From IMG/VR virus record IMGVR_UViG_2713896729_000008, positions 1 through 22,993 of that record: a stretch of 22,993 bases of DNA, one strand, 5' to 3'. The notes below the pieces were generated by a model, which saw only the letters and a program-made list of their open reading frames with translations, ran no database searches and was not told the DNA's origin. The translations under genes were made by a program, and so were the position numbers. The stretch is from a virus (lineage: Duplodnaviria > Heunggongvirae > Uroviricota > Caudoviricetes). Shown one piece after another: positions 4,961 through 22,993 of this stretch (positions are counted from its first letter, which is position 1; every line of letters begins with the position of its first letter).

Positions 4961-5411
4961 GGTTGTTCTCCTGATTCTCCGGCAGGTAGAGTTTCCCCAT
5001 TTCCTTGCCATCGTGCGAATACACCACCGATTTCTCACCCGTATAGCTGTCGGTCTCAATCCGGAAGCTCAGGGCGATATTGTCAGCAAGGCACAGGGCG
5101 GCTATCAGCGGCTGCACCGTTTTCTGCTGCATATCGGCAATGTAGTAATAACTGCCGGACTCACAGCCTTCCGGCGACTGGCGGGTTTTCATTACCGTGT
5201 ATTGCGGCGTGCCGAAGGCATCCTTTTTTACCCATTCCTGCACGATGTCGGATTTATGCGCCACCACATCGCTGAACGGTGGTGGAGTCAGGTCCTTAAA
5301 TCGGGCTATCGCTTTCACGCCAGCATCTTCCTTGCTGTCACAACCGGAAACACTGATAGCACTGATAACGGCCAGAACAGTGACAACAATACGCGGGTAT
5401 GTTTTTTTCAT
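4956..5411 (-). CDS. lipoprotein of unknown function
   Basis: 151-aa ORF; signal peptide with lipobox MKKTYPRIVVTVLAVISAISVSGC. Confidence 0.65.
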   Translation of the reverse strand: MKKTYPRIVVTVLAVISAISVSGCDSKEDAGVKAIARFKDLTPPPFSDVVAHKSDIVQEWVKKDAFGTPQYTVMKTRQSPEGCESGSYYYIADMQQKTVQPLIAALCLADNIALSFRIETDSYTGEKSVVYSHDGKEMGKLYLPENQENNP

Positions 5412-5449
5412 GACGTTGATCCCTTGCTGATAATATCGTTTTGACTGCG

Positions 5450-6795: not shown

Positions 6796-7055
6796 GTATT
6801 ATCTCCGTGTTGGGTAAGTGATTAATTAAGAAGGTATTACTGTAAAGGATGAGACTGACAGGTTATGTCCGTGATACGTTGCGAAGCGCCTGGCGCGAAA
6901 AGGCCGTCTGGGTGCCCTGTTGGCAGCAGTAACGCGCTTATGACCGGTGGTATCTTTTGCTGGTGCAGACAGGTTATGTCTGCCACATAAAAATCATCTG
7001 CCGGATGATGAATAAACAGAGTCATTCACTACAGTCCTGATGACCTTTTACTCAT

Positions 7056-7931
7056 TCAGAAGAAGACCCAGTCCCAGACCGCGCGGGCTACAGACACCAC
7101 AGCATCACGCACGGTACGTATCACCGTCTTCAGCGGCGCAGGCAGGAATGACGATGATTCTGCCGTATCGAACACCAGCCCCACCGCCTCACCGAAGCCG
7201 TCACGGGCCTGCGACTTTACCGGCTCCGTGCAGAGCCTCCCGTGCAACTGTGTCGCCAGCGGGCTGGTGGCGCGGTCCGGAAGACAGCGCATCATGGTGC
7301 CCACCATCTCCTCAGTGCCCCATCCGGCCAGCGCGGACACCATGCAGACAGGATGATGTGGTTTAAACATCGCGGTAATGGCTACCTGCTTTTCCTGAAG
7401 ATTTGCCCATTGCTGTGCTGAAGGCGTGCTGGTTCGGGTATCCCATTCGTGGCAGGGTTCTATTTTGTCGGCCTGGTTAATCACGAACAACACCTGCTGC
7501 TGGTAAGGCTGCATCACGCCGCGCCAGAAATGCTCGTCCACCGACAGCGCCCGGTCATCGGCCTTAATGACCCACAACACCAGGTCCAGCTCCGGCAGCA
7601 TACGCCGGTACAGGGCGCGGTATTCCTGGTCCCGTTGTCCGTTTTCGCCCACGCCCGGCAAATCAACAATCACCAGACTGTGACGCCCGCTGCGTAGCCG
7701 GAAGCGCAGCACGGCACGGGTGCAGGCGTTCACATCACTGACGGCGGAGACTTTCCCCCGAAAGAGTTCGTTACAGAGCGACGACTTACCGACACCACTC
7801 TTGCCCATGATGCCAATCACCGGCTCGTAGTGGGTCAGATTCTGAATACGTTCAAGAATAAGCTGGCGAAGCGTATCGGGAAGCGACGACAGCGGTTGTT
7901 CAAGGGCCTGAAGGCCGTGTGGTTTAGTCAT
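7056..7931 (-). CDS. YfjP/YkfA/YeeP-family small GTPase (prophage-island GTP-binding protein)
   Basis: 291-aa ORF with G1 GIMGKSGVGKSS, G3 DLPGVGE and G4 NQADK motifs; size and motifs fit the cryptic-prophage GTPase family of E. coli. Confidence 0.75.
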   Translation of the reverse strand: MTKPHGLQALEQPLSSLPDTLRQLILERIQNLTHYEPVIGIMGKSGVGKSSLCNELFRGKVSAVSDVNACTRAVLRFRLRSGRHSLVIVDLPGVGENGQRDQEYRALYRRMLPELDLVLWVIKADDRALSVDEHFWRGVMQPYQQQVLFVINQADKIEPCHEWDTRTSTPSAQQWANLQEKQVAITAMFKPHHPVCMVSALAGWGTEEMVGTMMRCLPDRATSPLATQLHGRLCTEPVKSQARDGFGEAVGLVFDTAESSSFLPAPLKTVIRTVRDAVVSVARAVWDWVFF

Positions 7932-7948
7932 AAAGGATTCTCAGCGTG

Positions 7949-7989
7949 AAAAACAAAAATCCCCGCACTCCGGTCAGGGAGGCGGGGGA
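7949..7989 (-). terminator. candidate rho-independent terminator (minus strand)
   Basis: On the minus strand, a GC-rich imperfect hairpin (cccgcctcc ... ggagtgcggg) is followed by gatttttgttttt, about 60 nt downstream of the stop of the 8054-8881 gene. Confidence 0.45.
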
Positions 7990-8053
7990 TTCACGAAGAT
8001 AATATCTGTCTGAGATTATTTCGAATGAAGCTTATTGCTTCTGCCATATCACT

Positions 8054-8881
8054 TTATGATTGCCGTGATTGACTCTTCGCATCATTAAAAGCATTGTTAA
8101 TCAGTTCGTTAAGAATTTCCTTCGATGTGGTCTTCTCTACATGCGCAATAAACTCAAGTTTTTTTTGAGCCGCTTTGGTCAACTTCACAGCAGCTGGTTC
8201 CTTAGCTCTTCTGGCTCTTCTTTCCTTTTGCTCCCATGCATTTTTAAGCTCATCAAGAAGAATATCTTTATGATTTTTATTGATGCCATTTTCCGGCATG
8301 ATGCCATGTCCAAGAAACTTTCCTTTATTACGCCTTTTATTTTTGCCGTTAAGATAAGATTCCTGCTCGGTAGTCCATCCTTTCCAGTTATCAAAAATAG
8401 CAAAGATAAAATAATATTTCTCTTTATTATCATGTGGTTTTAATGGAATGCCTAAGCATCGTTCCTGCATTTGTTGCCATAACCACTGGCATTGAGTTTC
8501 ATCTTTGCTGTTAACCCATGAAAAAGGTGCTGGGTAAAGGGCGTACTGGTGACGCCATTCGATATCTATAGATGAGATTAAATTTGATATTTTTTGAGGC
8601 TTTTTTACGAAGGTTATCAACAGGTGTACGAATAAAGAAAAGCCAACGTTTCTCTCTGAGACATCCTTAATTCTTTTAAAAAGTAACCCGTTTGCATTTC
8701 TGATATTTTCAGGTGGAATTTTATCGGTCTTTTCTTTTTTATCTTGTTTACAGGTACTAAGGTTTATTTTCTCCGGGGACGAGAATGCGGAGGAAGAAGT
8801 TTTATTTTTAGCATCAATAGTACTGGATTGTTTATCAATAGTATCCACTAACTCAGCAGGAAGAGTCTGCGACCACGGCAT
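8054..8881 (-). CDS. hypothetical protein in AT-rich DNA, K/R-rich C-terminus
   Basis: 275-aa ORF in a visibly AT-rich stretch; no motif I recognise. C-terminal third is strongly basic (KNKRRNKGKF..., KERRARRAKEPAAVKLTKAAQKK). Confidence 0.5.
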   Translation of the reverse strand: MPWSQTLPAELVDTIDKQSSTIDAKNKTSSSAFSSPEKINLSTCKQDKKEKTDKIPPENIRNANGLLFKRIKDVSERNVGFSLFVHLLITFVKKPQKISNLISSIDIEWRHQYALYPAPFSWVNSKDETQCQWLWQQMQERCLGIPLKPHDNKEKYYFIFAIFDNWKGWTTEQESYLNGKNKRRNKGKFLGHGIMPENGINKNHKDILLDELKNAWEQKERRARRAKEPAAVKLTKAAQKKLEFIAHVEKTTSKEILNELINNAFNDAKSQSRQS

Positions 8882-8980
8882 AATATCGCGGGAAGGCTGA
8901 GTATATTGACTGGTGGATATAGGGTGATGCTGCCAACTTACTGATTTAGTGTATGATGGTGTTTTTGAGGTGCTCCAGTG

Positions 8981-8990
8981 NNNNNNNNNN
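8981..8990. other. assembly gap (10 N)
   Basis: Run of n. Confidence 0.95.
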
Positions 8991-9200
8991 GATGCTTATA
9001 TCGCAATAACTCCTGACACCTCAATATTACATATGGCAAGTGCCTATAATACCCCTGTTGTTGCAATTTATGCTGATTACAAAACGCGATGGCCCGCAAT
9101 GGCCGATGTCTCGGAGTCAGTCGTCGTTGGGCAAAAAATTGACAATATAAGTCTGGATGAATTCGCAAAGGCATTAAAAAGTGTTTTGGCGAGAATATGA
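8991..9200 (+). CDS. glycosyltransferase family 9 (heptosyltransferase-like) C-terminal fragment
   Basis: Frame open from the gap: DAYIAITPDTSILHMASAYNTPVVAIYADYKTRWP... resembles the conserved C-terminal nucleotide-sugar-binding segment of LPS heptosyltransferases. Confidence 0.5.
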   Translation, partial: DAYIAITPDTSILHMASAYNTPVVAIYADYKTRWPAMADVSESVVVGQKIDNISLDEFAKALKSVLARI

Positions 9201-9461
9201 GACAGTACTTATGCATAGTAATGCCGATCTGTTATGAACGGTGGTGTCATCAATACTCTGAGGCTGGTCAATCATCACAGAAAACCAGCCTTTAGATCAA
9301 AGCAGTACTCACCGAAAATGATCATAGTCACATCGAACGCGATTCTGGCGGTGCCGCATTTTTATTTATTCATTTTCTGTGAGAGAAGGGCTAGTTCTGT
9401 AGAGGGAATGTAAAAAAGAGTGCCCCGAATGGAACACTCTTTAAGAAATTATAACGGAAAA

Positions 9462-10317
9462 TCACAGGTTTTTATAACATGTCGCATAAGAAAACCCAAG
9501 CTTTTCAAATACGCTTTGATCACCTGTTGCCAGGGAAACTACGTATTGTTCGCTTGAGTTTGCGGGACTAGATGACCAATACATATTTGATTGAAAACCA
9601 GCGTCAGTCGTGTAATGCCCCATATCTCCCCATTCACTGTACAGTGACCCGATGCCTCGGGAACTACAGTGGTTTAAATAGTTTGCTCTGGGGAGCGTGT
9701 AGCCATTGCTGCTGCAAAAATTTTCAGCAAGGCTGTATATCATGAAAGCCTCGCCGGCGTTCACCCACCAACTCTTCACACGGATTTCGTATACATAGCT
9801 AGGGCCTCCTGATTTTGGCGTCGCCGTAATCCTTTCCGAATTGCTGCCGACATTTTTAAATGTCACTTTACCGGTAGCATCAACATCGACCCAGGAGGCA
9901 GAGCTTGAAAACTCATAATCAGCCGCCGTTTTTCCTGGGGCAAAGTTGTCATTATTCAACTGATAATACGCCCCGGTGAACCCCTGCGAAGGGAATGTAG
10001 TTGTCGGTAGGTCAGTACCATTGACTGATACTGTACCGCTCATTATTTTGTCTTCTGCGCGAGTGAATTGTATTGTGGTACTCAGACCAGCTTGATGAAC
10101 ACCATTCAATACAGGGATCAGCGTTGCGATACCCTCTCCGCCTCCTGTAACAGTGGCTTTGTAATCACCGTTGATATTTAGACTGTAATCAATTGCGCTA
10201 ATTTTTATATAGGGCACGTTAGTACCTGATTGCACAAATTCCATCCCTTCAGAAACTTTGATCGGATTGCCTGATATATCGTGCAGAACAAGACGTAATT
10301 CAGCACTATCGGTATAG
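9462..10317 (-). pseudogene. invasin/intimin-family adhesin, C-terminal portion, 5' end truncated by IS3
   Basis: Minus-strand frame is open from the stop at 9462 right up to the IS3 terminus at 10318 with no credible start (track starts at an internal Met, 10244). Contains a beta-rich Ig-like segment and a Cys-containing C-terminal domain (...NFCSSNGYTLPRANYLNHCSS...SYATCYKNL) reminiscent of invasin/intimin lectin-like domains. Confidence 0.5.
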
Positions 10318-10347
10318 TGATCCTACCCACGTAATATGGACACAGGC

Positions 10348-11214
10348 CTAAGCGAGGTTCTTGTTTTCAAATTGTTCCGGACTGAGGCCGCCACACCAAC
10401 TGTGCCGCCGCCACCGATTGTAATCACATTCGATATAATTAAACACCGTTGCCCGCATTATTTCCCGGCTGATAAAGTGTTCTCCATGGATACATTCCAC
10501 TTTCAGCGAATGAAAGAAGCTTTCCACGCAGGCATTATCGTAGCAGCAACCTTTTGCGCTCATACTTCCACGCAGATTATGCCGCTTCAGTTGCGCCTGA
10601 TAATCTGCTGAACAGTACTGGCCTCCACGGTCCGTGTGAACGATAACGTTCCGGGGCCTCTTACGCCGCCACAGCGCCATCTGCAGGGCATCGCAGGCCA
10701 GTTGCGCCGTCATGCGTGGCGACATTGACCAGCCAATAACGGCACGTGACCACAGGTCAATGACCACTGCCAGATACAGCCAGCCTTCATCTGTACGTAA
10801 GTACGTGATGTCTCCTGCCCACTTCTGGTTCGGGCCACTGGCGTAAAAATCCTGCTCCAACAGATTTTCTGACACAGGCAGGCCGTGTGCGCGGTAGCTG
10901 ACCGGGCTGAACTTCCGGGAGGCCTTTGCCCTCAGTCCCTGACGGCGCAGGCTTGCCGCCACGGTTTTTACGTTAAAGGGGTAACCCTGAGCACGCAGTT
11001 CATCCGTCAGGCGTGGGGCACCGTAACGCTGTTTTGACCGGGTAAAAGCCGCGAGGACAACGCTGTCGCAGTGTTGGCGGAACTGCTGACGCGTGCTTAT
11101 CCTTGTCCGCCGCTGACACCACGTATACCAGCCGCTGCGGGCCACCCGGAGCACGCGGCACATTGCTTTTATGCTGAACTCAGCCTGATGTTTTTCAATA
11201 AAGACATACTTCAT
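10348..11214 (-). CDS. insF: IS3 OrfB (InsF), DDE transposase catalytic region
   Basis: 288-aa [32 protein letters not shown]...[12 protein letters not shown] is recognisable as IS3 InsF; overlaps orfA by 4 nt. Confidence 0.85.
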
Positions 11215-11510
11215 TTCAGGCGCTTCGCGAAGTATGTCGCGGCCTTTTGGAGGATAGCCAGCTCTTCATCCCGTTCTGCCAGCTGGCGTTTGAGACGTGC
11301 AATCTCGGTAGACATCTCCAGTTCACGTTCAGAAGACGTCTGCTGATTTTGCTGTTTACTGCGCCAGTTGTAGAGTTGTGATTCATACAGGCTGAGTTCA
11401 CGGGCTGCGGCAGTAACACCGATGCGTTCAGCAAGCTTCAGGGCTTCACTGCGAAATTCAGGCGAATGCTGTTTACGGGGTTTTTTACTGGTTGATACTG
11501 TTTTTGTCAT
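11211..11510 (-). CDS. insE: IS3 OrfA (InsE), transposase N-terminal HTH protein
   Basis: [32 protein letters not shown]...ATYFAKRLK is recognisable as IS3 InsE; the track ORF begins two in-frame codons-plus upstream at 11519. Confidence 0.85.
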
Positions 11511-11575
11511 GTGAGTCACCTCTGACTGAGAGTTTACTCACTTAGCCGCGTGTCCACTATTGCTGGGTAAGATCA

Positions 11576-11902
11576 CTGAACCAGTGGGATGCGCTGTGCT
11601 ACTACTGTGAAGATGGCCTGGCAGAGCCTGATAACAACGCTGCCGAACGAGCCCTTCGTGCCGTCTGTCTTGGGAAAAAGAATTTTATCTTCTTCGGCAG
11701 CGACCACGGTGGTGAGCGCGGAGCCCTGCTGTACGGACTGATCGGGACGTGCAGGCTGAATGGTATCGATCCGGAAGCCTACCTTCGCCATATCCTGAGC
11801 GTACTGCCGGAGTGGCCCAGCAACAAAGTGGCCGAACTGCTGCCATGGAACGTGGTTCTTACCGATAAATAACCGTCAATACGGCGCTCACTTAACGCTT
11901 AC
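11576..11902 (+). mobile_element. IS66-family element remnant: transposase (TnpC) C-terminal 98 codons plus probable terminal repeat
   Basis: Frame open from the first base after IS3: ...DNNAAERALRAVCLGKKNFIFFGSDHGGERGALLYGLIGTCRLNGIDPEAYLRHIL...ELLPWN, stop at 11870-11872. This is the conserved IS66 TnpC C-terminal signature. The sequence ...cgcttac ending near 11902 is the reverse complement of the GTAAGCG IS66-type terminus. Confidence 0.75.
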
Positions 11903-12075
11903 AATTGGCGTTAGTGTTAGACATATATTCAAGCCTATCTCTTATCTGGAGATACAGCTACTGTCTGGTGTTTCAGGGGGCTACATTAGTAACAATCCTG
12001 ACACTGAGGGCATCAGGTCTTTCTTCAATCTCACACTCCGATTATCTGAGCAAAAATTTCTCTATATTTAGTGCA

Positions 12076-12103
12076 TTTACAAATATATCTGATTTCGTAA
12101 ACT
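12076..12103 (+). promoter_or_regulatory. candidate sigma70 promoter for the defence operon
   Basis: TTTACA (12076-12081), 16-bp spacer, TAAACT (12098-12103), in an AT-rich 270-bp intergenic region upstream of the SNF2 gene. By-eye hexamer match only. Confidence 0.25.
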
Positions 12104-12176
12104 AGATTTCAGAATTGAAAATTGGTTCTGAAAAAGGTAGACCAGTTTAGAACCTGAGCTGATTACAGGAAATGGA

Positions 12177-14027
12177 ATGGTTTATTCGATAAAACACGGC
12201 ATTGTCGAGCAGGACGGGTGTCCAATCGATCCCGAATTGCTTTTTAGACTTGGCAAATTTGTAGCTGAGGCTAGAGACAGCGAAACTACTTTGGTCATCT
12301 CAAAACGCCCAGCTGAACTGAAATTCCGGTTCAGCCATGAACCAGCGCCTTCATTCAGATTGTTTTTCAGGGAGGTAGAGCTTACTCCTGATCAGGTGAA
12401 TTCTTTGGTGGAATACGGTTATTTTATTGCTGATGGCAAGCGGGTGTATTTTGTCAGTGACAGACTTAAGGATTTCTCCGTATCTGCCTGCAACAAGCTG
12501 TCACTCCCCGGATTGCTCAAACTACTTCGCAAACTATACAATGATGGACTTATTGACGCTCTTCCATCATCCCTTGTAGAGAAGCTCAGGGCACAGCAGC
12601 AGAAAATATCACTCCACGATAAACTCTTTGTCAGGGAACTCTACCCCTACCAGAATGAAGGTGTTGCATGGCTGACCTTCTGTGCAGCCAACGGTGTGGG
12701 TACCATCCTTGCCGATGATATGGGTCTGGGTAAGACTGCTCAAGTAATTGCCCTGTGCTGCGATGTTCTCGAACACAATCCTGAAGGTAGGATCCTTATT
12801 GTTGTTCCCAATCCTCTGCTGGCCAACTGGATCAGAGAATTTTCTTTTTTTGCTCCTTCACTCAGACCTTTTCTCCATTATGGGCAGAACAGGAGCGGTC
12901 TCAGTTCAGATCTTTCCGAGCACAATATAATTGTTACTCCCTATACCGTATTGAGTTCCGATATTTCGATGCTGGAAGAAATCCCGTTTGACCTTGTACT
13001 TTATGATGAAGCCAGTATGCTGAAAAATCCTCAGTCGGGCAGATCTCTTGCAGCAAGACGTCTTGATTCTGTTGCTTCCGTTGCAATGTCGGGAACTCCT
13101 GTCGAGAACTGCCTTCTTGACGTCTGGGCTCTCTGTGACCTGGTTTTCCCCGGTTTTCTCGGAAACGAGCAGGATTTCAGATCTCGTTATGTCCATCGCG
13201 AACTGTCCAAAACGCTCAATACGGATCTACACGGGCTTGAAAACAGTCTCCGGCAGATAACCCTGCGACGTATGAAAAAAGATGTCCTGACACAGCTGCC
13301 TGAAAAAATGGATATTCACAGAGCTGTTACCGCAGGAGACAAGGAACGAAATACCTATGAATCCATCATTGAGGAGATGCAGCAGGATGCGGCAAAAGGA
13401 GGAGGAGGTATGCTACCCCTGATCAACAAACTACAGCAGTTTACTGCACATCCGGCTCTTCTAGATCCGAGCATACCCCATGATGTCAAATCCCTATGCC
13501 TCCACAGCGCCAAATTCGAACTACTGATGATGGAACTGGACGGCATAGAACAATCCGGAGAAAAAGTCATCATCTTTGCCACATTCCAGAAGGCAATCGA
13601 TCTGCTAGGTGCTGCAGTTAGGGAACGTTATGGCATCACCCCAGGAGTGATTGACGGACGGACTCCAAATGAACAACGGCAGCCGCTGATTGACAGATTT
13701 TCCAAATCGTCCGGATTCGATCTGCTGCTGTTGCACCCTAAAACAGCCGGTATGGGGCTAAATATCACCGCTGCCACCAATGTAATCCATTATTGCCGAC
13801 AGTGGAATCCGGCCCTTGAGGCACAGGCTACGGCAAGAGCATGGAGAAACGGACAGAAATCTGTGGTTAGCGTTTACTACATGTATTACGCGGATACTGT
13901 CGAAGAAATGATCGATGAACGGATACGAATGAAACAGAAGCTTAGCGAGCAGGTTGTTGCAGTGGCCGACTATAAAGAAACAGACAAACAGCTGATGCTG
14001 GAATATTTGGAATCGATAAAAAAATGA
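12177..14027 (+). CDS. SNF2-family helicase-like ATPase
   Basis: 616 aa; RBS aggaaa upstream of ATG. Motif I LADDMGLGKT, motif II LVLYDEASMLKN, motif III MSGTPVEN, motif V GMGLNITAATNV, motif VI QATARAWRNGQ. N-terminal ~150 aa without recognisable motif. Confidence 0.9.
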   Translation: MVYSIKHGIVEQDGCPIDPELLFRLGKFVAEARDSETTLVISKRPAELKFRFSHEPAPSFRLFFREVELTPDQVNSLVEYGYFIADGKRVYFVSDRLKDFSVSACNKLSLPGLLKLLRKLYNDGLIDALPSSLVEKLRAQQQKISLHDKLFVRELYPYQNEGVAWLTFCAANGVGTILADDMGLGKTAQVIALCCDVLEHNPEGRILIVVPNPLLANWIREFSFFAPSLRPFLHYGQNRSGLSSDLSEHNIIVTPYTVLSSDISMLEEIPFDLVLYDEASMLKNPQSGRSLAARRLDSVASVAMSGTPVENCLLDVWALCDLVFPGFLGNEQDFRSRYVHRELSKTLNTDLHGLENSLRQITLRRMKKDVLTQLPEKMDIHRAVTAGDKERNTYESIIEEMQQDAAKGGGGMLPLINKLQQFTAHPALLDPSIPHDVKSLCLHSAKFELLMMELDGIEQSGEKVIIFATFQKAIDLLGAAVRERYGITPGVIDGRTPNEQRQPLIDRFSKSSGFDLLLLHPKTAGMGLNITAATNVIHYCRQWNPALEAQATARAWRNGQKSVVSVYYMYYADTVEEMIDERIRMKQKLSEQVVAVADYKETDKQLMLEYLESIKK

Positions 14028-15622
14028 CAGATAAAATTGAATTACAGGAAAATGATTTCCGCCCTTCTGCTGCGAGGCTGGTCGAAAGCCTCCGTGATAC
14101 GGGATACAGTGAAAAAGCGGCATTTGCTGACATTGTAGACAATTCAATAGCAGCTAATGCTACGAAAATTGCCATCGAGCTCCAATATCTAATGGGTGAG
14201 TTCCGAGTAGTCATTACCGATAACGGTGATGGAATGACTGAGTCCGAGCTGAAGAATGCGATGCGGTACGGTTCCGAAAAACGGCCGAATCCGAAGTCAC
14301 TGGGCAAATTCGGAATGGGGCTGAAAACTGCGTCTACGGCATTCTGCCGTAGACTGGTGGTACTTTCACAGAAAGAAGGAACTGCAGTAGGCCGTATCTG
14401 GGATCTCGATACCATCAGTGAAAAAGATCGCTGGGAACTCGAGACCCCAGATGAAAACGACTATTACGACGATTTCGAAGTTCTTGAGGATTTCTCCGGA
14501 AATTCAGGCACCATGATTGTCTGGGAAAAAATTGATCGTCTGATCAAGCCAGGCAGCGATAGACAGATGCTTGATCAGATCCGGACCCTCGGTAAGGAAC
14601 TTGTTGACGAACTGAGTGCCGTCTTTTTCAAATATCTTTCCTCCGGAAACGTAGAAATTTCACTCAAAATTGCGGATGAACCCGAAATCCTTCTCCAAGG
14701 ATGGGATCCCCTGTCTACTGAACTTGTTACCAGTGGCGGGGCCCGTCCCCAGCTCTTGAAAGAAAAGAAAATCCGCGTCGAGTTCAACGGAAACAGCTAT
14801 TCTTTCACAATCAGAGGAAGCCTGATTCCATCGCAGAATGAGCTGACTGCGGAAGAGCAGGAGGCTGTGAGATACGGATTGGATAACCAAGGGTTCTATA
14901 TCTATCGAGAAGACCGGTTGATATGGAATGACGGCTGGCCTCACCGAATGTATAAAAAGGAAGGTAAGATCACCCGTCTGCGTGTCGAGCTGGTTTTCTC
15001 CCATGAACTTGATGATGTATTCAGTATCGATTTCCGCAAAAGCCGAGTGATAATCCCTGTTGAAATCCGTAGGGAACTGCAGTCGCTGATTGCTCCATGG
15101 CGTCAGGCACTACTTTCCGTTCCGTCAAAAAAACAATCTGAACAGTCCGGTTCGACACGTGCACATGGTCCTGCTGATAATGCGATAGATAAGCAGAAAA
15201 ACCGTACAAAAAACTCCGATATAAAGGTTGATGGCGAAACAGTTACTATCAGAAACCAGAACCAGCCCAAACCTGCAGTAATCAACGATATACGCGTCTA
15301 TGAGGACAAGACTGTCAGGGTTCACGAAGAAAACTCCCTGATGGGTGACAATCTCTGGGAACCGTCATGTGACATTGATGGAAACACCTGCGTAACACTT
15401 GGGAAGTCGCATCCATATTTCCTGAGAATGTATGATGTCTGCAAGGACAATGTAGAAGCCATGAAAGCTCTCGACATGCTTCTGTGGAGCCTTGCAAATG
15501 CCGAACATGGTGAATACTCAGAAGCGAACAAGCACACCCTGAAAGGATTCCGCCAGAAGGTCAGTGAGAGTCTTCGTTATCTCAGCCTTGAACTGCCGGA
15601 TCCGGAAGAGGATTCAGAATGA
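14024..15622 (+). CDS. GHKL (Bergerat-fold) ATPase, MutL/MORC-like
   Basis: 532 aa; ATG overlaps the SNF2 stop (ATGA). N-box DIVDNSIAANATKIAIEL (compare MutL ELVENSLDAGAT), G1 box VITDNGDGM, G2 box GKFGMGLK. C-terminal ~300 aa unassigned. Confidence 0.85.
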   Translation: MTDKIELQENDFRPSAARLVESLRDTGYSEKAAFADIVDNSIAANATKIAIELQYLMGEFRVVITDNGDGMTESELKNAMRYGSEKRPNPKSLGKFGMGLKTASTAFCRRLVVLSQKEGTAVGRIWDLDTISEKDRWELETPDENDYYDDFEVLEDFSGNSGTMIVWEKIDRLIKPGSDRQMLDQIRTLGKELVDELSAVFFKYLSSGNVEISLKIADEPEILLQGWDPLSTELVTSGGARPQLLKEKKIRVEFNGNSYSFTIRGSLIPSQNELTAEEQEAVRYGLDNQGFYIYREDRLIWNDGWPHRMYKKEGKITRLRVELVFSHELDDVFSIDFRKSRVIIPVEIRRELQSLIAPWRQALLSVPSKKQSEQSGSTRAHGPADNAIDKQKNRTKNSDIKVDGETVTIRNQNQPKPAVINDIRVYEDKTVRVHEENSLMGDNLWEPSCDIDGNTCVTLGKSHPYFLRMYDVCKDNVEAMKALDMLLWSLANAEHGEYSEANKHTLKGFRQKVSESLRYLSLELPDPEEDSE

Positions 15623-16542
15623 ATTATGAATACGATCTGGCCGATTTCAAACGTTACCTTTACGACAAAAACCACAGTTACAGGGTAGATGGACTGATTT
15701 TCTGGCAGAACAGGATTCCGTTGCCGATTGACCTGTTCAATCGAATATTCGATGAATCAGATCTGATAATTGCAGATTTTGTTTATCAGGTAGCAGCAAG
15801 CGCTGCCGTTTTCAGCGAAAAAGAGTCATTCGAGAGTACCTTCGGGCTGGAAGTGACAAATCTTCCAACCGACAAGCTTAAAGCGGAAATACCAGCACTG
15901 TCCACGTGGGTGGATGAACATCTGCCTGAAAATTGCAGAATTGTCCGTATGATATATGAAATCGCGGAGCTTCTGGGCCTTTCAGAGTTCAGGTTTTCCG
16001 GTGATAGGATCGCAAAATCGCTTGCTCACCAAGGGAAAAAGTATGCCCGTCTATTCATGCCGAGTCCGGTAAAGGATCTGGTGAACAACATTCAGGGATG
16101 TGACACCATCGGGCAGGACAATACTGACATGTTCGGTAATATCATTGCCGACCGTTATAATATTTACCGTTCAGGTTTCAGTGATGCCTTGGCTATCATA
16201 TTCAATGCCCTACTCGAATTTAGGCTCCTGTTTTCTGGAAAAAGCGGCAATCTGCCTAGATTTAGGGTAATGATGACTGCTCCTGACGACATCGATATTC
16301 GTTTCGGTAAAACAGCCGACGGTTCATTGTGGGAACCTGGTTACGGGGACGATCATTTCATTACCATCAATACTGAACATCCCGTGATGAAAAATCAGGC
16401 GAAAGACCAGGGCTGTGCACTGGCCGAATTGCTGTTTTTTATGGGGCAGTATGAAAACTCTCAGTTTTCGGACCAGAACAAGAAATTTATTGAAAACATG
16501 CGACAGACAATATCCAGAAATCTCTGGATCAAGTATGACTAA
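15619..16542 (+). CDS. hypothetical protein, operon partner of unknown function
   Basis: 307 aa; ATG overlaps the GHKL stop (ATGA); same strand and frame-coupled inside the operon; no motif I recognise. Confidence 0.7.
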   Translation: MNYEYDLADFKRYLYDKNHSYRVDGLIFWQNRIPLPIDLFNRIFDESDLIIADFVYQVAASAAVFSEKESFESTFGLEVTNLPTDKLKAEIPALSTWVDEHLPENCRIVRMIYEIAELLGLSEFRFSGDRIAKSLAHQGKKYARLFMPSPVKDLVNNIQGCDTIGQDNTDMFGNIIADRYNIYRSGFSDALAIIFNALLEFRLLFSGKSGNLPRFRVMMTAPDDIDIRFGKTADGSLWEPGYGDDHFITINTEHPVMKNQAKDQGCALAELLFFMGQYENSQFSDQNKKFIENMRQTISRNLWIKYD

Positions 16543-16569
16543 TTTTTCTCATGCAAGGACGGGACAAGT

Positions 16570-18510
16570 ATGCTTTCAGAACTGGATATGGTGATGAACT
16601 GGTTCAAAAATGAACCTGAATCGGCATGGCAATTCGATGAGATCGGATTCGATGATGAAACAAGAACGGTTCTATCAACAACCGGACTGACATTGCTGGA
16701 CCATACAGCACGGATGAAAACTGGAAGCGGGTATCACTGTTATATACCATGCCAGTATCTGATGTATATGCTAAAGATTGGGCCATTTGTAAGACTACTG
16801 GACAACTACATCTCTGTATTCGAAGAAATCAAAAAAAATATGTTTCCGGCAGAATTCGAAGCAATGATCGAAAGCGGAACGTCAAACGAGCAGGCGCTCG
16901 TTTCGCTGGACATCTACAGCCGCAGTAACTTTTTCTGGGCTTTCAAAGATCCCAGAACAAGACTTGAGGCAAAAAATCTAATAAACACGAGCTCAAAAAC
17001 TGGGAAAAAGAGTTATAGGCAATCCGATGATTTTGTCAAATCGGTCTTGCTGGCATCATTGCCGGTCCCGAATGTAAGCTCGGAAACACTCGGTACCCTG
17101 ATTCTTGATCTGGTGCGTTCTCAAGAAACATATGATTACCTTCAAAGGAGATATATGCCCAGTCTTCCTTATATGTTCAGTGTTCCTGATGGGGATGAAC
17201 TGCTGTTCAGAATAATGACAACCATTGGCTGGTCCGGTCAGTTTGAGCCTTTACTGGGGACTGACCCCGATGCCGAATTTGTTTCATGGAATGATATAGA
17301 CAGGGCATTTCTTCTCCGCCCATCCAGGGAACCCGGCAATGCGCTGTATGTCCAGAATCCCGTCCATTTTTCTGTTCCGCTGGAGAAATATATTTTCATC
17401 AGAAAGGGTCTCTTGGATACTCCCGATTCACTTGAAAAAATATCGGTTCTGGTTTCCGGTTTATGGCTGGGGATGAGTATCCGGAACAGAGAGGGCAAGT
17501 TCTTTTTCGAGTCATCGACCAGAGCCTCCGTATCCGGACCTAGAGTGACCGGTGGAACGAACAGAATCTTCTATGGGGCACCCGGTACGGGAAAAAGCTA
17601 CAGGGTCCATGGTGAAATGAGTGACGGTGCAGAAAAGATTGTCACAGTTTTCCATCCTGATACTCAGCATAACGATTTTGTCGGTGCCCTGAAGCCTAAA
17701 ATGGAAAAGAATGAACAGGGAGAAAGCAGCATAACCTACAGTTTCAGACCAGGCCCCTTTACCTGCGCACTCATACTGGCCATTGCTCGTCCAGACAGAA
17801 AGGTCTGTCTCATTATCGAAGAAATCAACCGTGCTTCTGCTGCAGCTGTCTTCGGCGAGCTTTTCCAGCTTCTAGACAGGGAGCCTGATGGAACGAGTAC
17901 CTACAGCATCAATGCCACTGATCCGGATATGATCGAGTATATAAATACGGAACTAGGTACTATGGGATGTACTCCTGTCGATAGCTTACGGATCCCGTCC
18001 AATATGTCTCTACTGGCTACCATGAACAGCAGTGATCAGGCAGTTATGCCGCTGGATACTGCATTCAAACGGCGCTGGAATTTCGAATATCTACCAATCG
18101 ATTTATCAAAACCGGAGATCCCACAAACCGAAATCGTTTTCACCACCAATTCAGGAAAATATTCGGTACTCTGGCGCGATTTTGCTCAAATTATTAATGA
18201 CACCCTTGTCGAATGTGAAATAGCAGAGGATCGTCTGATCGGCCCGTTTTTCCTAGATTCTAAAGAACTGGAAAATAGGGAAGCAGCGAAAGCTGCCCTT
18301 GGCGGAAAACTGTTCATCTATTTGTGGGATGATGTGCTGAGACATGTCGGACACCAGAAAATATTTGCGTCTACCTTCAGAACGTTCGGCAACCTATCTG
18401 CAGCATTTCGCAATGACATGGCTGTTTTCTCCACTGCCGTAGAGAACAGACTTGAAGGGGTGGGCACTCCTGTTGACATGAACAGGGATCCGCAAGATGT
18501 TGCCAGCTGA
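16570..18510 (+). CDS. McrB-like AAA+ GTPase with unrelated N-terminal domain
   Basis: 646 aa. C-terminal half has Walker A RIFYGAPGTGKSY, Walker B CLIIEEINRASAAAVFGELFQLLDRE (McrB DEINRA-type signature) and MSLLATMNSSDQ...DTAFKRRW. N-terminal ~330 aa has no resemblance I can see to the E. coli McrB DNA-binding domain. Confidence 0.85.
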   Translation: MLSELDMVMNWFKNEPESAWQFDEIGFDDETRTVLSTTGLTLLDHTARMKTGSGYHCYIPCQYLMYMLKIGPFVRLLDNYISVFEEIKKNMFPAEFEAMIESGTSNEQALVSLDIYSRSNFFWAFKDPRTRLEAKNLINTSSKTGKKSYRQSDDFVKSVLLASLPVPNVSSETLGTLILDLVRSQETYDYLQRRYMPSLPYMFSVPDGDELLFRIMTTIGWSGQFEPLLGTDPDAEFVSWNDIDRAFLLRPSREPGNALYVQNPVHFSVPLEKYIFIRKGLLDTPDSLEKISVLVSGLWLGMSIRNREGKFFFESSTRASVSGPRVTGGTNRIFYGAPGTGKSYRVHGEMSDGAEKIVTVFHPDTQHNDFVGALKPKMEKNEQGESSITYSFRPGPFTCALILAIARPDRKVCLIIEEINRASAAAVFGELFQLLDREPDGTSTYSINATDPDMIEYINTELGTMGCTPVDSLRIPSNMSLLATMNSSDQAVMPLDTAFKRRWNFEYLPIDLSKPEIPQTEIVFTTNSGKYSVLWRDFAQIINDTLVECEIAEDRLIGPFFLDSKELENREAAKAALGGKLFIYLWDDVLRHVGHQKIFASTFRTFGNLSAAFRNDMAVFSTAVENRLEGVGTPVDMNRDPQDVAS

Positions 18511-19771
18511 TATTCTGTATCTTTCAGACAGGACACCTGTCACCGATCGCAGTATTCCTGCGACCGTGCTCGATGAGCTGAGAAACAGGGGGCTGCTGGC
18601 CCCCGACATGCAGAAAATCCATTTCTGTGGAGTCATGTCTTTCAGTGGAGGTCTGGCTGTATTTCTGCCACGAAATAACAGTTCTTCTCGTGAATCGCAG
18701 GCTCTTTCAGCACATTATCTGCTCCGCTCACTCCTGAAATTCTACCGAGATAGAGACACCGGTGTTTTTGATGGGGATGCAGGAACCGGACTTATCGGTG
18801 GTGAATCCCTGTCGTTGGCAACTGCACTGATTGACGACTATCAGACGAATGGTCTCTATGTCCGCCGGATTAGAGTCGATACAACCAACTCCGGAAAAGT
18901 TGTATGGCCGGAGACAATTGCCCGAGGGACTGCCTATACTAGCCCATCTGGGCCTGTATATATCGATCCTGTAACCACACGTTCGCGCTACCTCACCGAT
19001 AGCGAGACAGCAAAGATTCATGCCTCTGTAATGAGGGAGCTCTATCCGGTATACGGAATGCTCTGGACAGGCAGTCAGGGCACTCCTGAACGACTGCAGA
19101 ATGTTCCGCGTCCTGAGGGAAATGTTTTCTCATGGGTTGTACACCTAAGAAGAGAACTGCAGTTCAGCTATTCCGAAAGGGATATTTTCCTTTTGCGGAG
19201 ACTGATCATGTATCTTGAAACAGGGAGAGGAATGCGGAATGGCGGGGTTCTTATCGGTGTCAGGAAGTTTCACAGTCTGTGGGAAGCCATGCTGGATGAA
19301 TGCTTGGTGGGTAAATACCGAGTTAACAATAAATTGCCTATTCCCGTGTATCGGGCCGGCAGTGACAGGTTTGTTCCCGTTGCCAACAAGAGCCAGAGAA
19401 CGGATACGGTTCTCCACAATGCAGAAAAAACGCACGTCGCGATCATAGATGCCAAATACTATGATGCGAAGACACCGGATAGTGCTCCTGGTTGGCCGGA
19501 TCTGGTAAAACAGTTTTTCTACCAGAAGGCGCTTTCTTACCTAGTGCCGGTCGGTACCCACATCACAAACCATTTCATTTTTCCTGGAACAGAAAAGCCA
19601 CTCAGGGCTGTCCATGTTGCGGAAAGGGGAAAGGTTCTGGTTACAGAAGCTGACTGTCTGTCCGAATATCCGCCGATTCATTGCCATTACCAGGATCCCC
19701 TAGAACTACTTCGGCTGTATTCAACAGGAGAAAAGCTGGTAGAACTGACCCGCGAAATTTTTACAGTCTGA
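18497..19771 (+). CDS. McrC-like PD-(D/E)xK nuclease subunit
   Basis: 424 aa; start overlaps the McrB-like stop by 14 nt (mcrBC-type arrangement); contains ...TDTVLHNAEKTHVAIIDAKYYD, fitting the (I/V)DxKY nuclease motif of McrC and LlaJI.R2. Confidence 0.7.
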   Translation: MLPADILYLSDRTPVTDRSIPATVLDELRNRGLLAPDMQKIHFCGVMSFSGGLAVFLPRNNSSSRESQALSAHYLLRSLLKFYRDRDTGVFDGDAGTGLIGGESLSLATALIDDYQTNGLYVRRIRVDTTNSGKVVWPETIARGTAYTSPSGPVYIDPVTTRSRYLTDSETAKIHASVMRELYPVYGMLWTGSQGTPERLQNVPRPEGNVFSWVVHLRRELQFSYSERDIFLLRRLIMYLETGRGMRNGGVLIGVRKFHSLWEAMLDECLVGKYRVNNKLPIPVYRAGSDRFVPVANKSQRTDTVLHNAEKTHVAIIDAKYYDAKTPDSAPGWPDLVKQFFYQKALSYLVPVGTHITNHFIFPGTEKPLRAVHVAERGKVLVTEADCLSEYPPIHCHYQDPLELLRLYSTGEKLVELTREIFTV

Positions 19772-19883
19772 AAAGATTCGGACTATGCCCAGAAATGTCG
19801 ATAGACATGAGACCCCCTCATTGATTGATCATCCGTACAGTGATACTATCGCCGGGAATAAAACCGGATAAGGTGAGCATGGG

Positions 19884-21200
19884 ATGGACAGTAAGAATAA
19901 ATTCCAATATATCAAAAATATGAGAAAAAAATTAGGCATAGGTCGCACCGAATTTGCCAATCTTCTCGGACTCGGTGCCACCGGAGAACGTACAGTCCGA
20001 GGATGGGAAGAAGAGGAACATGAACCGTCTTCCGCCAAATGGCAGGCCATTCTCGATGTGGAAAAGAAGATGACTGAATATCTGGAAAACGCACCTTTCC
20101 GCCAGAAGCCTGAAAATGAATGCAATTTCACCTTCATCGATCTGTTTGCTGGTATCGGAGGTATTCGTCTTCCTTATCAGCAGCAGGGAGGGCACTGTGT
20201 ATTCTCATCCGAATGGGACAAGTTCTCCCAGAAGACCTATCTAACGAATTTCGGCGAAATGCCCCAAGGTGACATCACTAGAATTCCGGCATCCGACATT
20301 CCTGATCACGATGTACTGCTTGGCGGATTTCCATGCCAGGCTTTTTCACAGGCCGGTTTGAAAAAAGGTTTCAGCGATACCCGTGGAACCATGTTCTTCG
20401 AAATTCAGCGGATAATGACAGCCAAGCGTCCAAAGGCATTCATGTTGGAAAATGTCAAGCAACTGCAGGGACATGATAAGGGTCGTACCCTGAAAACCAT
20501 TCTCGATATCCTGCGGGGCAATGGAACCCATTCCGTTCCGGACGATATCCCGATTAGTGAGGATGCCCGCAATGCTCTGTCCGAAAAACTCAATTACTGG
20601 GTTGATTACCGTGTACTGCGTGCAGGTGACTTCGGTGCCCCCCAGAACCGTGAACGTATTTTCATCGTTGGTTTTGACCGTGACTATTATAGGGGCGTGG
20701 ATTTCGACAGTGTATTCAGATGGCCGGTACCTCCTATGACTCCGACCCGTGTTGGTGACATTCTGGAAGACCTCGATCGTCTGCCTCTATCACAAGACAG
20801 ATATACCATCTCGGATAGACTGTGGATAGGCCACCAGAAACGGAAACTGGAACACGAAAAGAAAGGTAACGGTTTCGGCTATTCTCTTTTCAACAAGGAC
20901 AGCGAATACACTAATACCATCAGTGCACGTTATTACAAGGACGGCTCCGAAATCCTGATTGACCAGTCACATTTGGGTAGGAACCCACGCAAGCTAACTC
21001 CGCGCGAATGTGCACGTCTACAGGGATTCCCTGACGACTACATCGTCGATGCTGTTTCACAGGGCCAGATCTACAAGCAATTTGGCAACTCTGTCTGCAT
21101 GAATGTCATCCGTGCTGTCTCGGAACAGTTGGTCGAAACTATGAAAAAAGCCGAAATACTGGCTGGTAAGAACCAGGGTCTGGAGCGAACAGCAGGCTAA
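19884..21200 (+). CDS. DNA (cytosine-5) methyltransferase with N-terminal XRE-type HTH domain
   Basis: 438 aa; RBS aaggtgag. N-terminal HTH-like KKLGIGRTEFANLLGLGATGERTVRGWE. C5-MTase motifs I FIDLFAGIGGIRL, IV GGFPCQAFSQAG, VI FMLENVKQL, VIII QNRERIFIVG, IX RKLTPRECARLQGFPDDY, X KQFGNSV. Confidence 0.9.
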   Translation: MDSKNKFQYIKNMRKKLGIGRTEFANLLGLGATGERTVRGWEEEEHEPSSAKWQAILDVEKKMTEYLENAPFRQKPENECNFTFIDLFAGIGGIRLPYQQQGGHCVFSSEWDKFSQKTYLTNFGEMPQGDITRIPASDIPDHDVLLGGFPCQAFSQAGLKKGFSDTRGTMFFEIQRIMTAKRPKAFMLENVKQLQGHDKGRTLKTILDILRGNGTHSVPDDIPISEDARNALSEKLNYWVDYRVLRAGDFGAPQNRERIFIVGFDRDYYRGVDFDSVFRWPVPPMTPTRVGDILEDLDRLPLSQDRYTISDRLWIGHQKRKLEHEKKGNGFGYSLFNKDSEYTNTISARYYKDGSEILIDQSHLGRNPRKLTPRECARLQGFPDDYIVDAVSQGQIYKQFGNSVCMNVIRAVSEQLVETMKKAEILAGKNQGLERTAG

Positions 21201-21540
21201 TGACCCTGCAGTGGAAGAAAATGTCGTGATGTGATGCCCCCTTTCCTGAAGCAGCCAATGTAATACTGCCACAGTTTGCGTTTGCTATGGGAGTAAATCA
21301 CATCACTACATATGTAGCCTTTTCATTATCACAATATTCCTCAGTGTTAGACTGAATACTGCGCCATCCACTTCCTATCTGATGGCTTCACCACTTTTTT
21401 GCCAATCTAAGAATCCCAGCAAAACGGCCCATCCACTTTTAGAGATCTTCCGACTGATCTTGACCCGCCATCTCCGGACAGCTTTTGTAGCTAAAATTAA
21501 CGATGCTCGCTGCCGCCGGTATTCTCTCGGAAAGACATAT

Positions 21541-21563
21541 CCCACCCGCACAGTGCGGGTGGG
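21541..21563. repeat. 23-bp perfect palindrome between convergent methyltransferase and integrase genes
   Basis: cccacccgcac-a-gtgcgggtggg: 11-bp arms, single-base centre; no flanking T-run on either strand. Confidence 0.6.
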
Positions 21564-21730
21564 AGACTGATTTAGTCATCATCTTTCCTGTCTCTATTTT
21601 CTTCCTAACTGGCATCTAGGCTACAAAGATAAACTTCCGCCTATGGAACAGAGCTGCCTGCAGATTAGGTTTAGCTCTGTGCCAGAGCTGTGTCAGATCA
21701 AATCTGAGCTAATATATTTAAACACATATG

Positions 21731-22993
21731 CTACATATTACCCCGGTTGATCTTCGCATAGTCAAACGGCGTAATTCCCCTTTCCCGATTGGCATCCAGA
21801 AAATCAGCCCACCACTGCAACATCAGCTTGCGCTCATCCAGATGTTCCGCTTTATGAATATACGCCGCCCTCACCGAATTGCGTTCCATATGGCTCATCT
21901 GCCGTTCTACCGCATCTCTGGACCAAAGACCTGACTCAATCAACGAACTACAGGCCATTGCCCGGAAGCCGTGACCACAGACATCGACCTTTGTATCATA
22001 GCCCATCAGACGCAGTGCGTTATTTACAGTGTTCTCACTCATGGGTTTCCATGGATTGTGATCGCCGGTGAAAATCAGTTCATGTTCTCCGCTGATAGTG
22101 TGGATCTGCTTCAGTATATTCACCGCCTGAGTAGATAGTGGCACAAGATGCTCTGTTCGCATTTTTGAGCCACGATGGGAATACTTGACCCCTTCAATAG
22201 GTTTCCGCTCAGGAGGAATGGTCCACATGGCTTTCTTGAAGTCGATCTCAGACCACCTGGCAAAGCGTAGTTCGCTGGAACGGATGAAGATAAGCAGGGT
22301 GAGTTTAGTTGCCTGCCGGGTGAGAGGTTGTCCTCTGTAGGCATCCAGTCGTTCAAGAAGCTCTGAAATGCGATTTAAGGCGAGGGCAGGGCGGTGCTGG
22401 CGTTTCACTGTGGTTAACGCGCCAGCCATATCCAAGGCAGGGTTATAGGTGATAATGCCTGACTGGGCAGCATAGCGCATGATTGCAGTGATACGCTGCT
22501 GAAGGCGCGCTGCGATTTCATATATCTCCTTTGCTTCGGCTGCTTTAACGGGAACAAGTAAATCGGGAGTCCTGAGGGTGGTAATGTCACGTGAACCAAT
22601 AAAGGGGAAAACATGAGTTTCGAGGCTTTTCAGTATCCTCTCATTGTGTGAGGCTGACCATTTTTTGTTGCTCTTATGCCACTGTCTTGCGATGCCTTCA
22701 AATGTCTGAGCTGTTTCGGGTACCGACTTTTTGATCCTTTTCTGTTCGCATGGGTCAGTTCCCTCAGCTATCAGCTTTCTCGCCGTATCGCGTTTTTCCC
22801 TTGCTTCTGATAACGAGACTTCAGGATAGACCCCCAGAGCGAGCGTTTTCTCTTTGCCCAGAAACCGATAGCGGAGCCGCCAGTAGCGAGAGCCGTTAGG
22901 GTGAACGAGCAAGAACATGTTGCCGCTGTCGGCAAGTTTATAAGGTTTTTCATCCGGTTTAGCGGCACGGATTTTAGCGTCAGTGAGCGCCAT
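21731..22993 (-). CDS. int: P4-type tyrosine integrase (site-specific recombinase)
   Basis: 420 aa; N-terminal arm-binding region MALTDAKIRAAKPDEKPYKLADSGNMFLLVHPNGSRYWRLRYRF typical of the P4 Int / IntA family; catalytic region with HGFRAM (HxxR) and RAAYIH (Tyr). The start codon is the final three bases of the window. Confidence 0.9.
   Translation of the reverse strand: MALTDAKIRAAKPDEKPYKLADSGNMFLLVHPNGSRYWRLRYRFLGKEKTLALGVYPEVSLSEAREKRDTARKLIAEGTDPCEQKRIKKSVPETAQTFEGIARQWHKSNKKWSASHNERILKSLETHVFPFIGSRDITTLRTPDLLVPVKAAEAKEIYEIAARLQQRITAIMRYAAQSGIITYNPALDMAGALTTVKRQHRPALALNRISELLERLDAYRGQPLTRQATKLTLLIFIRSSELRFARWSEIDFKKAMWTIPPERKPIEGVKYSHRGSKMRTEHLVPLSTQAVNILKQIHTISGEHELIFTGDHNPWKPMSENTVNNALRLMGYDTKVDVCGHGFRAMACSSLIESGLWSRDAVERQMSHMERNSVRAAYIHKAEHLDERKLMLQWWADFLDANRERGITPFDYAKINRGNM

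Follow-up and report, generated by a model that had tools for sequence, protein, structure and literature searches.

The subject of this analysis is a stretch of 22,993 nucleotides (nt) of DNA recorded as a virus of the Caudoviricetes (IMG/VR record IMGVR_UViG_2713896729_000008, positions 1 to 22,993). The whole stretch, referred to here as the window, corresponds to JRRJ01000104.1:1-22993 (assembly GCA_001413355.1); the literature, searched by assembly accession, yielded nothing. Its last part, 21201-22993, is very probably the tRNA-proximal edge of a CP4-57-like Escherichia coli island at pheU, in which a variable slot holds a restriction-like cassette of six genes (Table 1). The last gene of the cassette encodes a C5-cytosine DNA methyltransferase (Dcm) and faces an integrase gene (int) of the P4 family.

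The integrase gene and its insertion site

The int gene occupies the very end of the window. Its start codon, ATG, is read on the minus strand from the final three bases, and the open reading frame (ORF) runs from 22993 back to 21731, convergent with the Dcm gene across a spacer of 530 nt. This is the arrangement given in a preliminary description of the stretch. Pfam recognizes Arm-DNA-bind_3 (PF13356, 98 bits), Phage_int_M (PF22022, 90 bits) and Phage_integrase (PF00589, 68 bits) in the product, all well above the cut-offs. In a tblastn search against phage records the protein matches P4 Int with 57% identity across 97% of its length (E 6e-152). Alignment with P4 Int and with four relatives from E. 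coli shows no variation in the catalytic set R238, K277, H341, R344, H368 and Y378. Solved domains described as 'CP4-like integrase' match its N-terminal and central parts (E 1e-24 to 1e-35). An AGGAG ribosome-binding site lies 8 nt 5' of the ATG.

A tRNA or tmRNA attachment (att) site had been predicted just past 22993, and a tRNA-Phe(GAA) gene is indeed found there. It lies on the minus strand at scaffold positions 23190-23265 (ARAGORN and Rfam), 196 nt upstream of the int ATG, on the same scaffold and with no gap in between. The sequence comes from a locus retrieved by look-up of the SNF2 protein of the cassette (L027, JRRJ01000104.1:2177-24027), which matches window 2177-22993 with 0 mismatches and extends it by 1,034 nt without N. 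Past the tRNA gene come yjdC (dicD) and then dsbD, in a stretch identical to E. coli K-12 at 874 of 875 positions. Four contiguous assemblies that encode an identical Int have the order groSL, yjeH, fxsA, aspA, dcuA, cutA, dsbD, yjdC, tRNA-Phe, int. At the same place K-12 has dsbD, dicD (yjdC), pheU, yjdQ and cadC. The gene yjdQ has been described as what remains of a P4-like integrase gene; in the K-12 record it is given only as a pseudogene (163 nt). K-12 homology of the source scaffold stops 37 nt beyond the tRNA gene, after a terminator hairpin. The insertion site is pheU, the tRNA-Phe gene between yjdC and cadC.

This site has been catalogued. In the list of Hochhauser, Millman & Sorek (2023), yjdC-cadC with tRNA_Phe_GAA is E. 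coli defence hotspot #38; it was detected in 915 genomes, in 53 of which it is occupied (PMC10121019 S1 Table), so the earlier claim that the location belongs to an established hotspot class for anti-phage systems holds. The side of hotspot #38 observed here is that of yjdC and tRNA-Phe, the available sequence covering the yjdC side only and not cadC. The tRNA gene pheV, at which related islands are found (see below), corresponds to hotspot #5 (yghD-yqgA), occupied in 141 of 484 genomes (PMC10121019).

The 196-nt leader between the tRNA gene and int is 100% identical between pheU and pheV copies. It contains two GAGGGTA repeats 12 nt apart (49-72 nt 5' of the ATG) and an inverted copy (27-33 nt 5'), together spanning scaffold positions 23021-23066 (L027 20845-20890). 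The GAGGGTA copies are kept in inspected relatives at which other leader positions vary, and P4 has tandem arm repeats with the same 12-nt spacing at the equivalent place, just 5' of its int start. By analogy, the GAGGGTA repeats are candidate arm-type Int-binding sites. If Int acts like other members of its family it would recombine an att site overlapping the 3' end of tRNA-Phe, and it would probably use arm-type sites in the leader to do so.

The island and its variable slot

What kind of island does this edge belong to? Unbroken copies of the locus (L045, L046 and L022/L047) run from tRNA-Phe and int through the six-gene cassette to genes encoding a YfjJ-family protein, AlpA, a protein of 308 amino acids (aa), a GTPase, a DUF932 protein and a WYL regulator. 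After the WYL regulator come either YpjK, YfjS and YfjT or an Ag43-like autotransporter. The YfjJ-family protein resembles Gp2 of inoviruses. In contiguous copies the aa identity to the backbone of K-12 CP4-57 is 84-85% for YfjP, 94-96% for YfjQ, 63-94% for YfjR and 89% for YfjS. Judged by its genes, the island appears to be CP4-57-like in its backbone only, with an integrase from a different, P4-like branch that would target tRNA-Phe. CP4-57 itself is marked by an IntA-type integrase and by integration at ssrA, whereas Int is only 33% identical to K-12 IntA and sits beside tRNA-Phe. The preliminary description had offered a P4-like satellite or a CP4-57-like element, and it is the second that the contiguous copies bear out; the satellite fails for want of P4 core genes (see below). 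In one of the copies (L045, 1789-3498) a group II intron reverse transcriptase lies inside yfjQ (DUF932), with YfjQ residues 1-44 and 45-270 flanking the insertion.

The borders of the cargo can be placed from related islands. On the far side, backbone homology (97.7-99.5% in 28 complete genomes) stops exactly at the yfjJ stop codon. On the near side, alignment with the related int genes of complete E. coli genomes reaches no further than window 21782 (int codon ~404). The last 16 int codons, like the spacer, are peculiar to the cassette, so that Int ends in …RERGITPFDYAKINRGNM here and in …REQSVSPFDYAKINNPLRR in relatives, and spacer 21201-21730 has no match in any complete E. coli genome. 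The interval from int codon 404 to the yfjJ stop codon is a replaceable, variable cargo slot, and the divergence at 21782 suggests that cargo is exchanged through recombination within the 3' end of int. A terminator scan of the spacer also found a G+C-rich palindrome with an 11-bp stem (21540-21564), which may be a bidirectional terminator for both convergent transcripts.

Sister and related islands at pheV fill the slot in different ways. In strain 81 (NZ_CP088131.1) int is 98.8% identical at the DNA level, the leader is identical and the backbone is 99.0% identical. Its slot of 54 kb contains a type I restriction-modification (R-M) system, two DUF262 genes, many insertion sequences (IS) and the locus of heat resistance. 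GPT21-003 has the same backbone with appBA/cbdX and the etk-etp-gfc genes in the slot. E1, with an int 91.4% identical in DNA and 94% in protein, has Kiwa-like genes directly beside int. Three islands have int genes 89.5% identical in DNA: that of ET490 carries Srf and tellurite-resistance genes, and those of G5 and 2273-PO3 are left with IS-ridden remnants. Sister islands therefore often, but far from always, hold defence genes in the slot, and because of this the position of the cassette is modest evidence of a defence function. The independent support for defence that the preliminary description drew from the location is weakened to that extent by the non-defence cargo of the sister islands.

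Int and the cassette stay together. The exact Int protein occurs on at least 24 contigs, and the same six genes are present in every contig inspected. In CAXOHJ010000006.1 (L004/L045) the dsbD-yjdC flank is only 75% identical to E. coli, and the groEL region ~89%. Nevertheless, from the tRNA onward, through the 196-nt leader and int to the end of the cassette, its sequence is almost that of the E. coli copies (99.97-100% identity). This abrupt change coincides with the tRNA, which points to an element that integrates at this tRNA and was recently transferred horizontally. A near-identical int and cassette on a 75% flank also rule out a degenerate integrase unlinked to its cargo, a possibility raised at the outset: int is full length, its catalytic residues are intact and it shares its co-identity with the cassette in a second species. 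On these comparisons int and the cassette appear to be one mobile unit, moving together between species. The recombination activity of Int is a prediction, supported indirectly by the presence of nearly identical copies beside this tRNA in each of two species.

Alternative explanations

Some observations do not fit easily with the edge of a mobile pheU island that carries a restriction-like cargo. The first concerns the far end. When repeats of the 3' end of tRNA-Phe were looked for (25-, 20- and 17-mers with up to 2-3 mismatches), the window and the fetched loci gave only the tRNA itself. With no second att copy (attR) in these sequences, no island limits or crossover site can be set; of the features to be sought beyond 22993, the tRNA gene was found and the direct repeat was not. 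Closed genomes are no help in setting the limits, because, when 5,426 complete E. coli genomes were searched with the cassette by megablast, the IS66 fragment described below was all that matched. The second concerns this strain. Here the sequence 5' of the cassette consists of an IS66 fragment, an IS3 element, an invasin-like fragment and an N gap, and linkage to the CP4-57-like backbone is seen only in other copies. The third is that none of the six cassette proteins reaches the curated cut-off of a named defence system in NCBIfam.

Perhaps, then, the edge is a fossil in this strain. In this scenario int is intact, IS66 and IS3 have scrambled the island, the AlpA/YfjJ genes or the far att site are lost, excision no longer occurs and the cassette is fixed. 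This is possible, if somewhat doubtful. Homology to an IS66-free copy (L045) stops at 11903 and to an IS66-bearing copy (L047) at 11576. The IS3 element truncates the IS66 copy, its coordinates abutting the IS66 breakpoint, and an unrelated invasin-like fragment lies beyond. Since IS66 and IS3 cut the cassette off from the AlpA/YfjJ module, the present-day mobility of this strain's copy is doubtful. The missing attR would also fit, and so would the state of other islands: sister islands in complete genomes are IS1-truncated at the far end or reduced to remnants, and K-12 retains only the pseudogene yjdQ at pheU. Even the cassette can be hit. In L046 (UFWE01000006.1) one IS66 copy lies between the LlaJI-like and Dcm genes and another lies after Dcm, at the expected place of int (15817-18129 and 20251-21599). 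That copy is a decaying one, its nuclease genes split from the methylase gene. However, conservation is 100% for the int ORF and its ribosome-binding site, and likewise for the leader and its candidate arm sites. Near-identical copies in another species show very recent movement of the module, and the remainder of the island in this strain is just unassembled.

It is very unlikely that the cassette arrived independently of int, for example by IS66-mediated transposition, which would make their adjacency incidental. In E. coli copies an IS66 end does precede the SNF2 gene by 274 nt, and within 10 kb of the cassette in five other genera there is neither a P4-type integrase nor a tRNA. However, uninterrupted copies (L004/L045 and L011) have the same cassette-int junction without IS66, int, spacer and cassette are co-inherited at >=99.97% across species, and the exact Int accompanies the cassette in every contig inspected.

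Least credible of all is a P4-like phage satellite with the cassette in its psu-int hotspot and the alpha fragment at 165-1691 as the replication gene of the same element. There are resemblances. Int is related to P4 Int at the level given above, P4's variable genes gop, beta and cII likewise adjoin the 3' end of int, an alpha/orf106-like fragment is present in the same scaffold, and P4 hotspots are an established defence reservoir (PMC9122126). However, a tblastn search with all 13 P4 proteins found psu, sid, delta, eps, cI and vis to be absent from the window and from 10 kb of contiguous island (L022). Only int was matched in the island contigs, the alpha/orf106 matches being on a separate contig behind N gaps, and the 98% relatives of the alpha fragment belong to thrW and ssrA satellites with their own integrases and hotspot genes. 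In contiguous copies a CP4-57-type backbone directly follows the cassette. The P4 hotspot, as defined by Rousset et al. (2022; PMC9122126), measures 1-5 kb and is located next to cos, with psu and int on its two sides, whereas the cargo here is ~9-10 kb and bounded by yfjJ. With the core genes absent and no psu, a P4-like satellite was rejected.

The six-gene cassette

The reading preferred here, a CP4-57-like island at pheU, leaves the nature of its cargo to be considered. The cassette spans ~10 kb, and its six genes are tightly packed, with overlaps of 4 nt and 14 nt, the latter between the LlaJI-like gene and the upstream McrB-like gene. Its G+C content of 0.43-0.50 is lower than that of the flanks. 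The first product, a SWI2/SNF2 helicase, is ZorD- and DpdE-like in the helicase core only and below equivalog cut-offs. The GHKL ATPase that follows has human MORC2, MORC3 and MORC4 as its best solved-structure matches and is also MzaB-like, at 170 bits. The third product, of 307 aa, has no match in Pfam, PADLOC, NCBIfam or PDB, and is 61-81% identical and syntenic in 5 other gammaproteobacterial genomes. The next two genes encode an McrB-like nucleoside triphosphatase (NTPase), whose best solved-structure matches are chains of E. coli McrB (E 3.5e-8), and a nuclease of the LlaJI family. The last product, Dcm, has a weak match to an MqsA-type helix-turn-helix in residues 9-56, and is likely to be the self-marking component of the cassette. 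PADLOC labels the McrB-like and LlaJI-like proteins as type II restriction endonuclease and Dcm as type II methyltransferase. By domain searches the set that makes up a LlaJI-type R-M system is present, namely RE_LlaJI, an McrB-like NTPase and a 5-methylcytosine (m5C) methyltransferase in one operon.

Named systems with similar parts were considered and rejected. The scores fall far short for Mza (MzaB, 170 vs 850 bits), Zorya (ZorD, 252 vs 1500), DISARM (DrmD, 68 vs 950) and Dpd (DpdE, 41 vs 500). The other components of Mza, Zorya, DISARM and Dpd were absent by the PADLOC models.

The cassette is not confined to E. coli and its relatives. All six genes recur in Rheinheimera, Alkalimonas and two Shewanella loci, at 48-89% aa identity (values for tblastn segments). 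In Xenorhabdus the SNF2, GHKL, 307-aa and McrB-like genes are syntenic at 63-83%, with no LlaJI homologue after the McrB-like gene. A second, divergent McrB/LlaJI-like pair lies beside Dcm in the Xenorhabdus locus (L037, 1221-5350), upstream of the block of SNF2, GHKL, 307-aa and McrB-like genes. Only the Dcm gene shifts position across the other-genus loci. Neighbours in these loci include conflict genes, among them ABC-3C genes, RadC, a NERD-UvrD helicase, another SNF2 helicase, UmuC and a transposase. None of the five loci, which were found with the 307-aa protein, has a P4-type integrase or tRNA within 10 kb. Therefore, association with an integrase is not a property of the cassette as such.

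What might the cassette do? Most likely it is a methylation-dependent restriction system that distinguishes self from non-self, as its domains suggest. Dcm would mark host DNA as self, and the McrB-like/LlaJI pair would cut DNA that lacks the mark. The SNF2 and MORC ATPases could supply ATP-driven translocation or looping. Iyer, Abhiman & Aravind (2008; PMC2292703) predicted that operons combining MORC, SNF2, a cytosine methylase and a nuclease are R-M systems, and a census paper on McrBC (PMC11090510) makes no mention of LlaJI or GHKL proteins. A more far-reaching idea is that the cassette is a composite restriction system that has yet to be named, in which a chromatin-remodeller-like pair of SNF2 and MORC proteins is coupled to an McrBC-type nuclease. 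This system would occupy a dedicated slot in a family of CP4-57-like islands that are interchangeable between pheU and pheV, have recently crossed species and are possibly helper-dependent. As a whole this idea is tentative and rather unlikely. The thought of a helper-dependent mobile element arises because YfjJ is like Gp2 of inoviruses.

Other parts of the scaffold

The window is a scaffold of six contigs, which the preliminary description left out of consideration, since it contains five runs of exactly 10 N (1692-1701, 2236-2245, 3047-3056, 3392-3401 and 8981-8990). Int and the cassette are on the last contig, 8991-22993. In sister assemblies of the JRR and JRS series the contig often breaks in or just past tRNA-Phe, and a different, unrelated chromosomal contig is then joined to it via 10 N. 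Because of this gluing at the tRNA-Phe break, contigs that are neighbours in these scaffolds cannot be taken as linked.

Two lines of evidence in the preliminary description are affected. One is the alpha-primase fragment. The contig that carries it, 1-1691, is alpha-primase/orf106-like, at 65-76% aa identity to P4. In 3 complete genomes, relatives with 98% DNA identity lie in compact P4-like satellites of ~12.5 kb at thrW or ssrA. These have their own, different integrases of 388-397 aa and their own delta, psu and icd, and between int and psu/delta their hotspots carry a reverse transcriptase, Drt3ab, or SIR2 with an ATPase. Since it is on a different contig and has these relatives, the alpha fragment most plausibly comes from a distinct P4-like satellite, probably located elsewhere in the genome, and it falls away as evidence on the nature of the island. 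The other is the pair of YfjP- and YfjR-like genes. They do exist. However, they are on contig 3402-8980, which has 69-75% DNA similarity to the backbone of the uninterrupted pheU island as against 98.75% identity to the leuX island of strain RM9513. This contig may belong to another island, and the two genes lose their value as evidence for this one. The RM9513 leuX island has the same layout, with a different cluster in its int-proximal slot (SNF2, an AAA ATPase, an S8 peptidase, a methylase and a DEAD helicase). Besides the YfjP- and YfjR-like genes, contig 3402-8980 has further genes of a CP4-57-like backbone, for a GTPase, a WYL regulator, the YfjS lipoprotein and a GYF_2 protein.

The remaining contigs are miscellaneous. 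From reading of the translations, the two short contigs in 1702-3046 are lambdoid prophage fragments unrelated to the island. By the same reading, the N-terminal part of a lambda-type tape-measure protein is encoded at 1416-2057 (minus strand) and that of a J-like host-specificity protein at 2757-3046 (plus strand). Another small, unrelated contig has two RtT RNA repeats (3102-3233 and 3281-3412; Rfam RF00391, 137.5 and 83.7 bits), presumably of the kind typical of the tyrT-tpr locus. On the last contig a 260-aa ORF (9462-10244, minus strand) has weak matches to Invasin_D4 and Intimin_C. This invasin-like ORF is taken to be flanked by repeats, because in other assemblies it is confined to contigs of ~1.4 kb.

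Table 1. Features of the window, with coordinates numbered from its first base
Feature	Coordinates	Strand	Basis or remark
P4 alpha-like primase fragment	165-1691		Own contig, behind N gap
YfjR-like gene	6082-6795		On contig 3402-8980
YfjP-like gene	7056-7931		On contig 3402-8980
IS3-family element, orfA (102 aa) and orfB (288 aa)	10348-11519	-	Pfam HTH_Tnp_1, rve
IS66-family right-end fragment	11576-11902		Adjoins cassette; matches ISKox1-type IS66 transposase genes
SWI2/SNF2 helicase, 616 aa, first cassette gene	12177-14027	+	PF00176, PF00271
MORC-like GHKL ATPase, 532 aa	14024-15622	+	PF13589 HATPase_c_3, 105 bits
Conserved 307-aa protein, no family	15619-16542	+	Always between GHKL and McrB-like genes
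McrB-like AAA+ (AAA_5) NTPase subunit, 646 aa	16570-18510	+	PF07728; PADLOC REase_II, 1.7e-49
LlaJI-family (McrC-like) restriction endonuclease subunit, 424 aa	18497-19771	+	PF09563 RE_LlaJI, 111.6 bits (cut-off 23.6)
C5-cytosine DNA methyltransferase (Dcm), 438 aa	19884-21200	+	PF00145, 318 bits; TIGR00675 dcm, 305 bits; PADLOC MTase_II, 4.6e-118
Dcm-int spacer, cassette-specific	21201-21730
Called 46-aa ORF in spacer	21439-21579	-	Gene calls
P4-family tyrosine integrase, 420 aa, full length	21731-22993	-	Pfam, tblastn, alignment

Comparison with known systems

The analysis fixes the genomic address of the cassette: pheU, a catalogued hotspot, in a CP4-57-like island and not in a P4 satellite. 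It also delimits a unit of 10 kb, bounded by the yfjJ stop codon and int codon 404, that is suited to cloning and testing. In addition, it carries a warning that scaffold neighbours in this assembly are no evidence of linkage.

Integrase-only defence islands whose mobilisation is unknown have been described (PMC10121019). The present locus belongs to this integrase-only, tRNA-linked class of hotspot rather than to the psu-int class of P4. It shares with hotspot #38 the yjdC flank, tRNA-Phe(GAA), an integrase beside the tRNA and defence genes, and, as in the integrase-only islands, the available sequence shows no genes for transfer or packaging. What sets it apart is the cargo, since the six-gene cassette was found by megablast in 0 of 5,426 complete E. 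coli genomes. The context of the island is otherwise ordinary and adds nothing new on tRNA-linked defence islands.

CP4-57 (ssrA-intA-...-yfjP-yfjQ-yfjR-ypjK-yfjS-yfjT) has an orthologous backbone and the AlpA and YfjJ families, and it too carries anti-phage cargo (AbpAB and RnlAB). However, the integrases are only distantly related (33% identity), tRNA-Phe takes the place of ssrA, and alpA and yfjJ face the integrase here, with the cargo between int and yfjJ instead of between yfjJ and yfjP. P4 shares the integrase family, cargo that abuts the 3' end of int, an att site, predicted for the island, upstream of int in the 3' end of a tRNA gene, and tandem repeats spaced by 12 nt. It differs in that the island has no psu, sid, delta, eps, cI or alpha, and has a CP4-57-like backbone and a cargo of ~10 kb. 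The strain 81 island is similar in int (98.8% at the DNA level), leader (100%), AlpA/YfjJ/GTPase backbone (99.0%) and overall order. However, it is at pheV, and in place of the cassette it has the 54-kb slot with R-M, DUF262, IS and heat-resistance genes.

The cassette itself invites a different set of comparisons. Like the LlaJI-type (McrBC-like) R-M systems it combines an RE_LlaJI nuclease, an McrB-like AAA_5 NTPase and an m5C methyltransferase. LlaJI systems have two methyltransferases, whereas the cassette has one, and in the cassette the MORC/SNF2 and LlaJI modules are joined with the 307-aa protein in one conserved operon. In the second operon type of Iyer et al. (2008; PMC2292703), as here, a MORC-like GHKL ATPase is found beside a SWI2/SNF2 helicase and a cytosine methylase. 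The most interesting residue of the analysis is therefore the cassette, apparently a conserved restriction operon of MORC/SNF2/McrBC type that is without a name.

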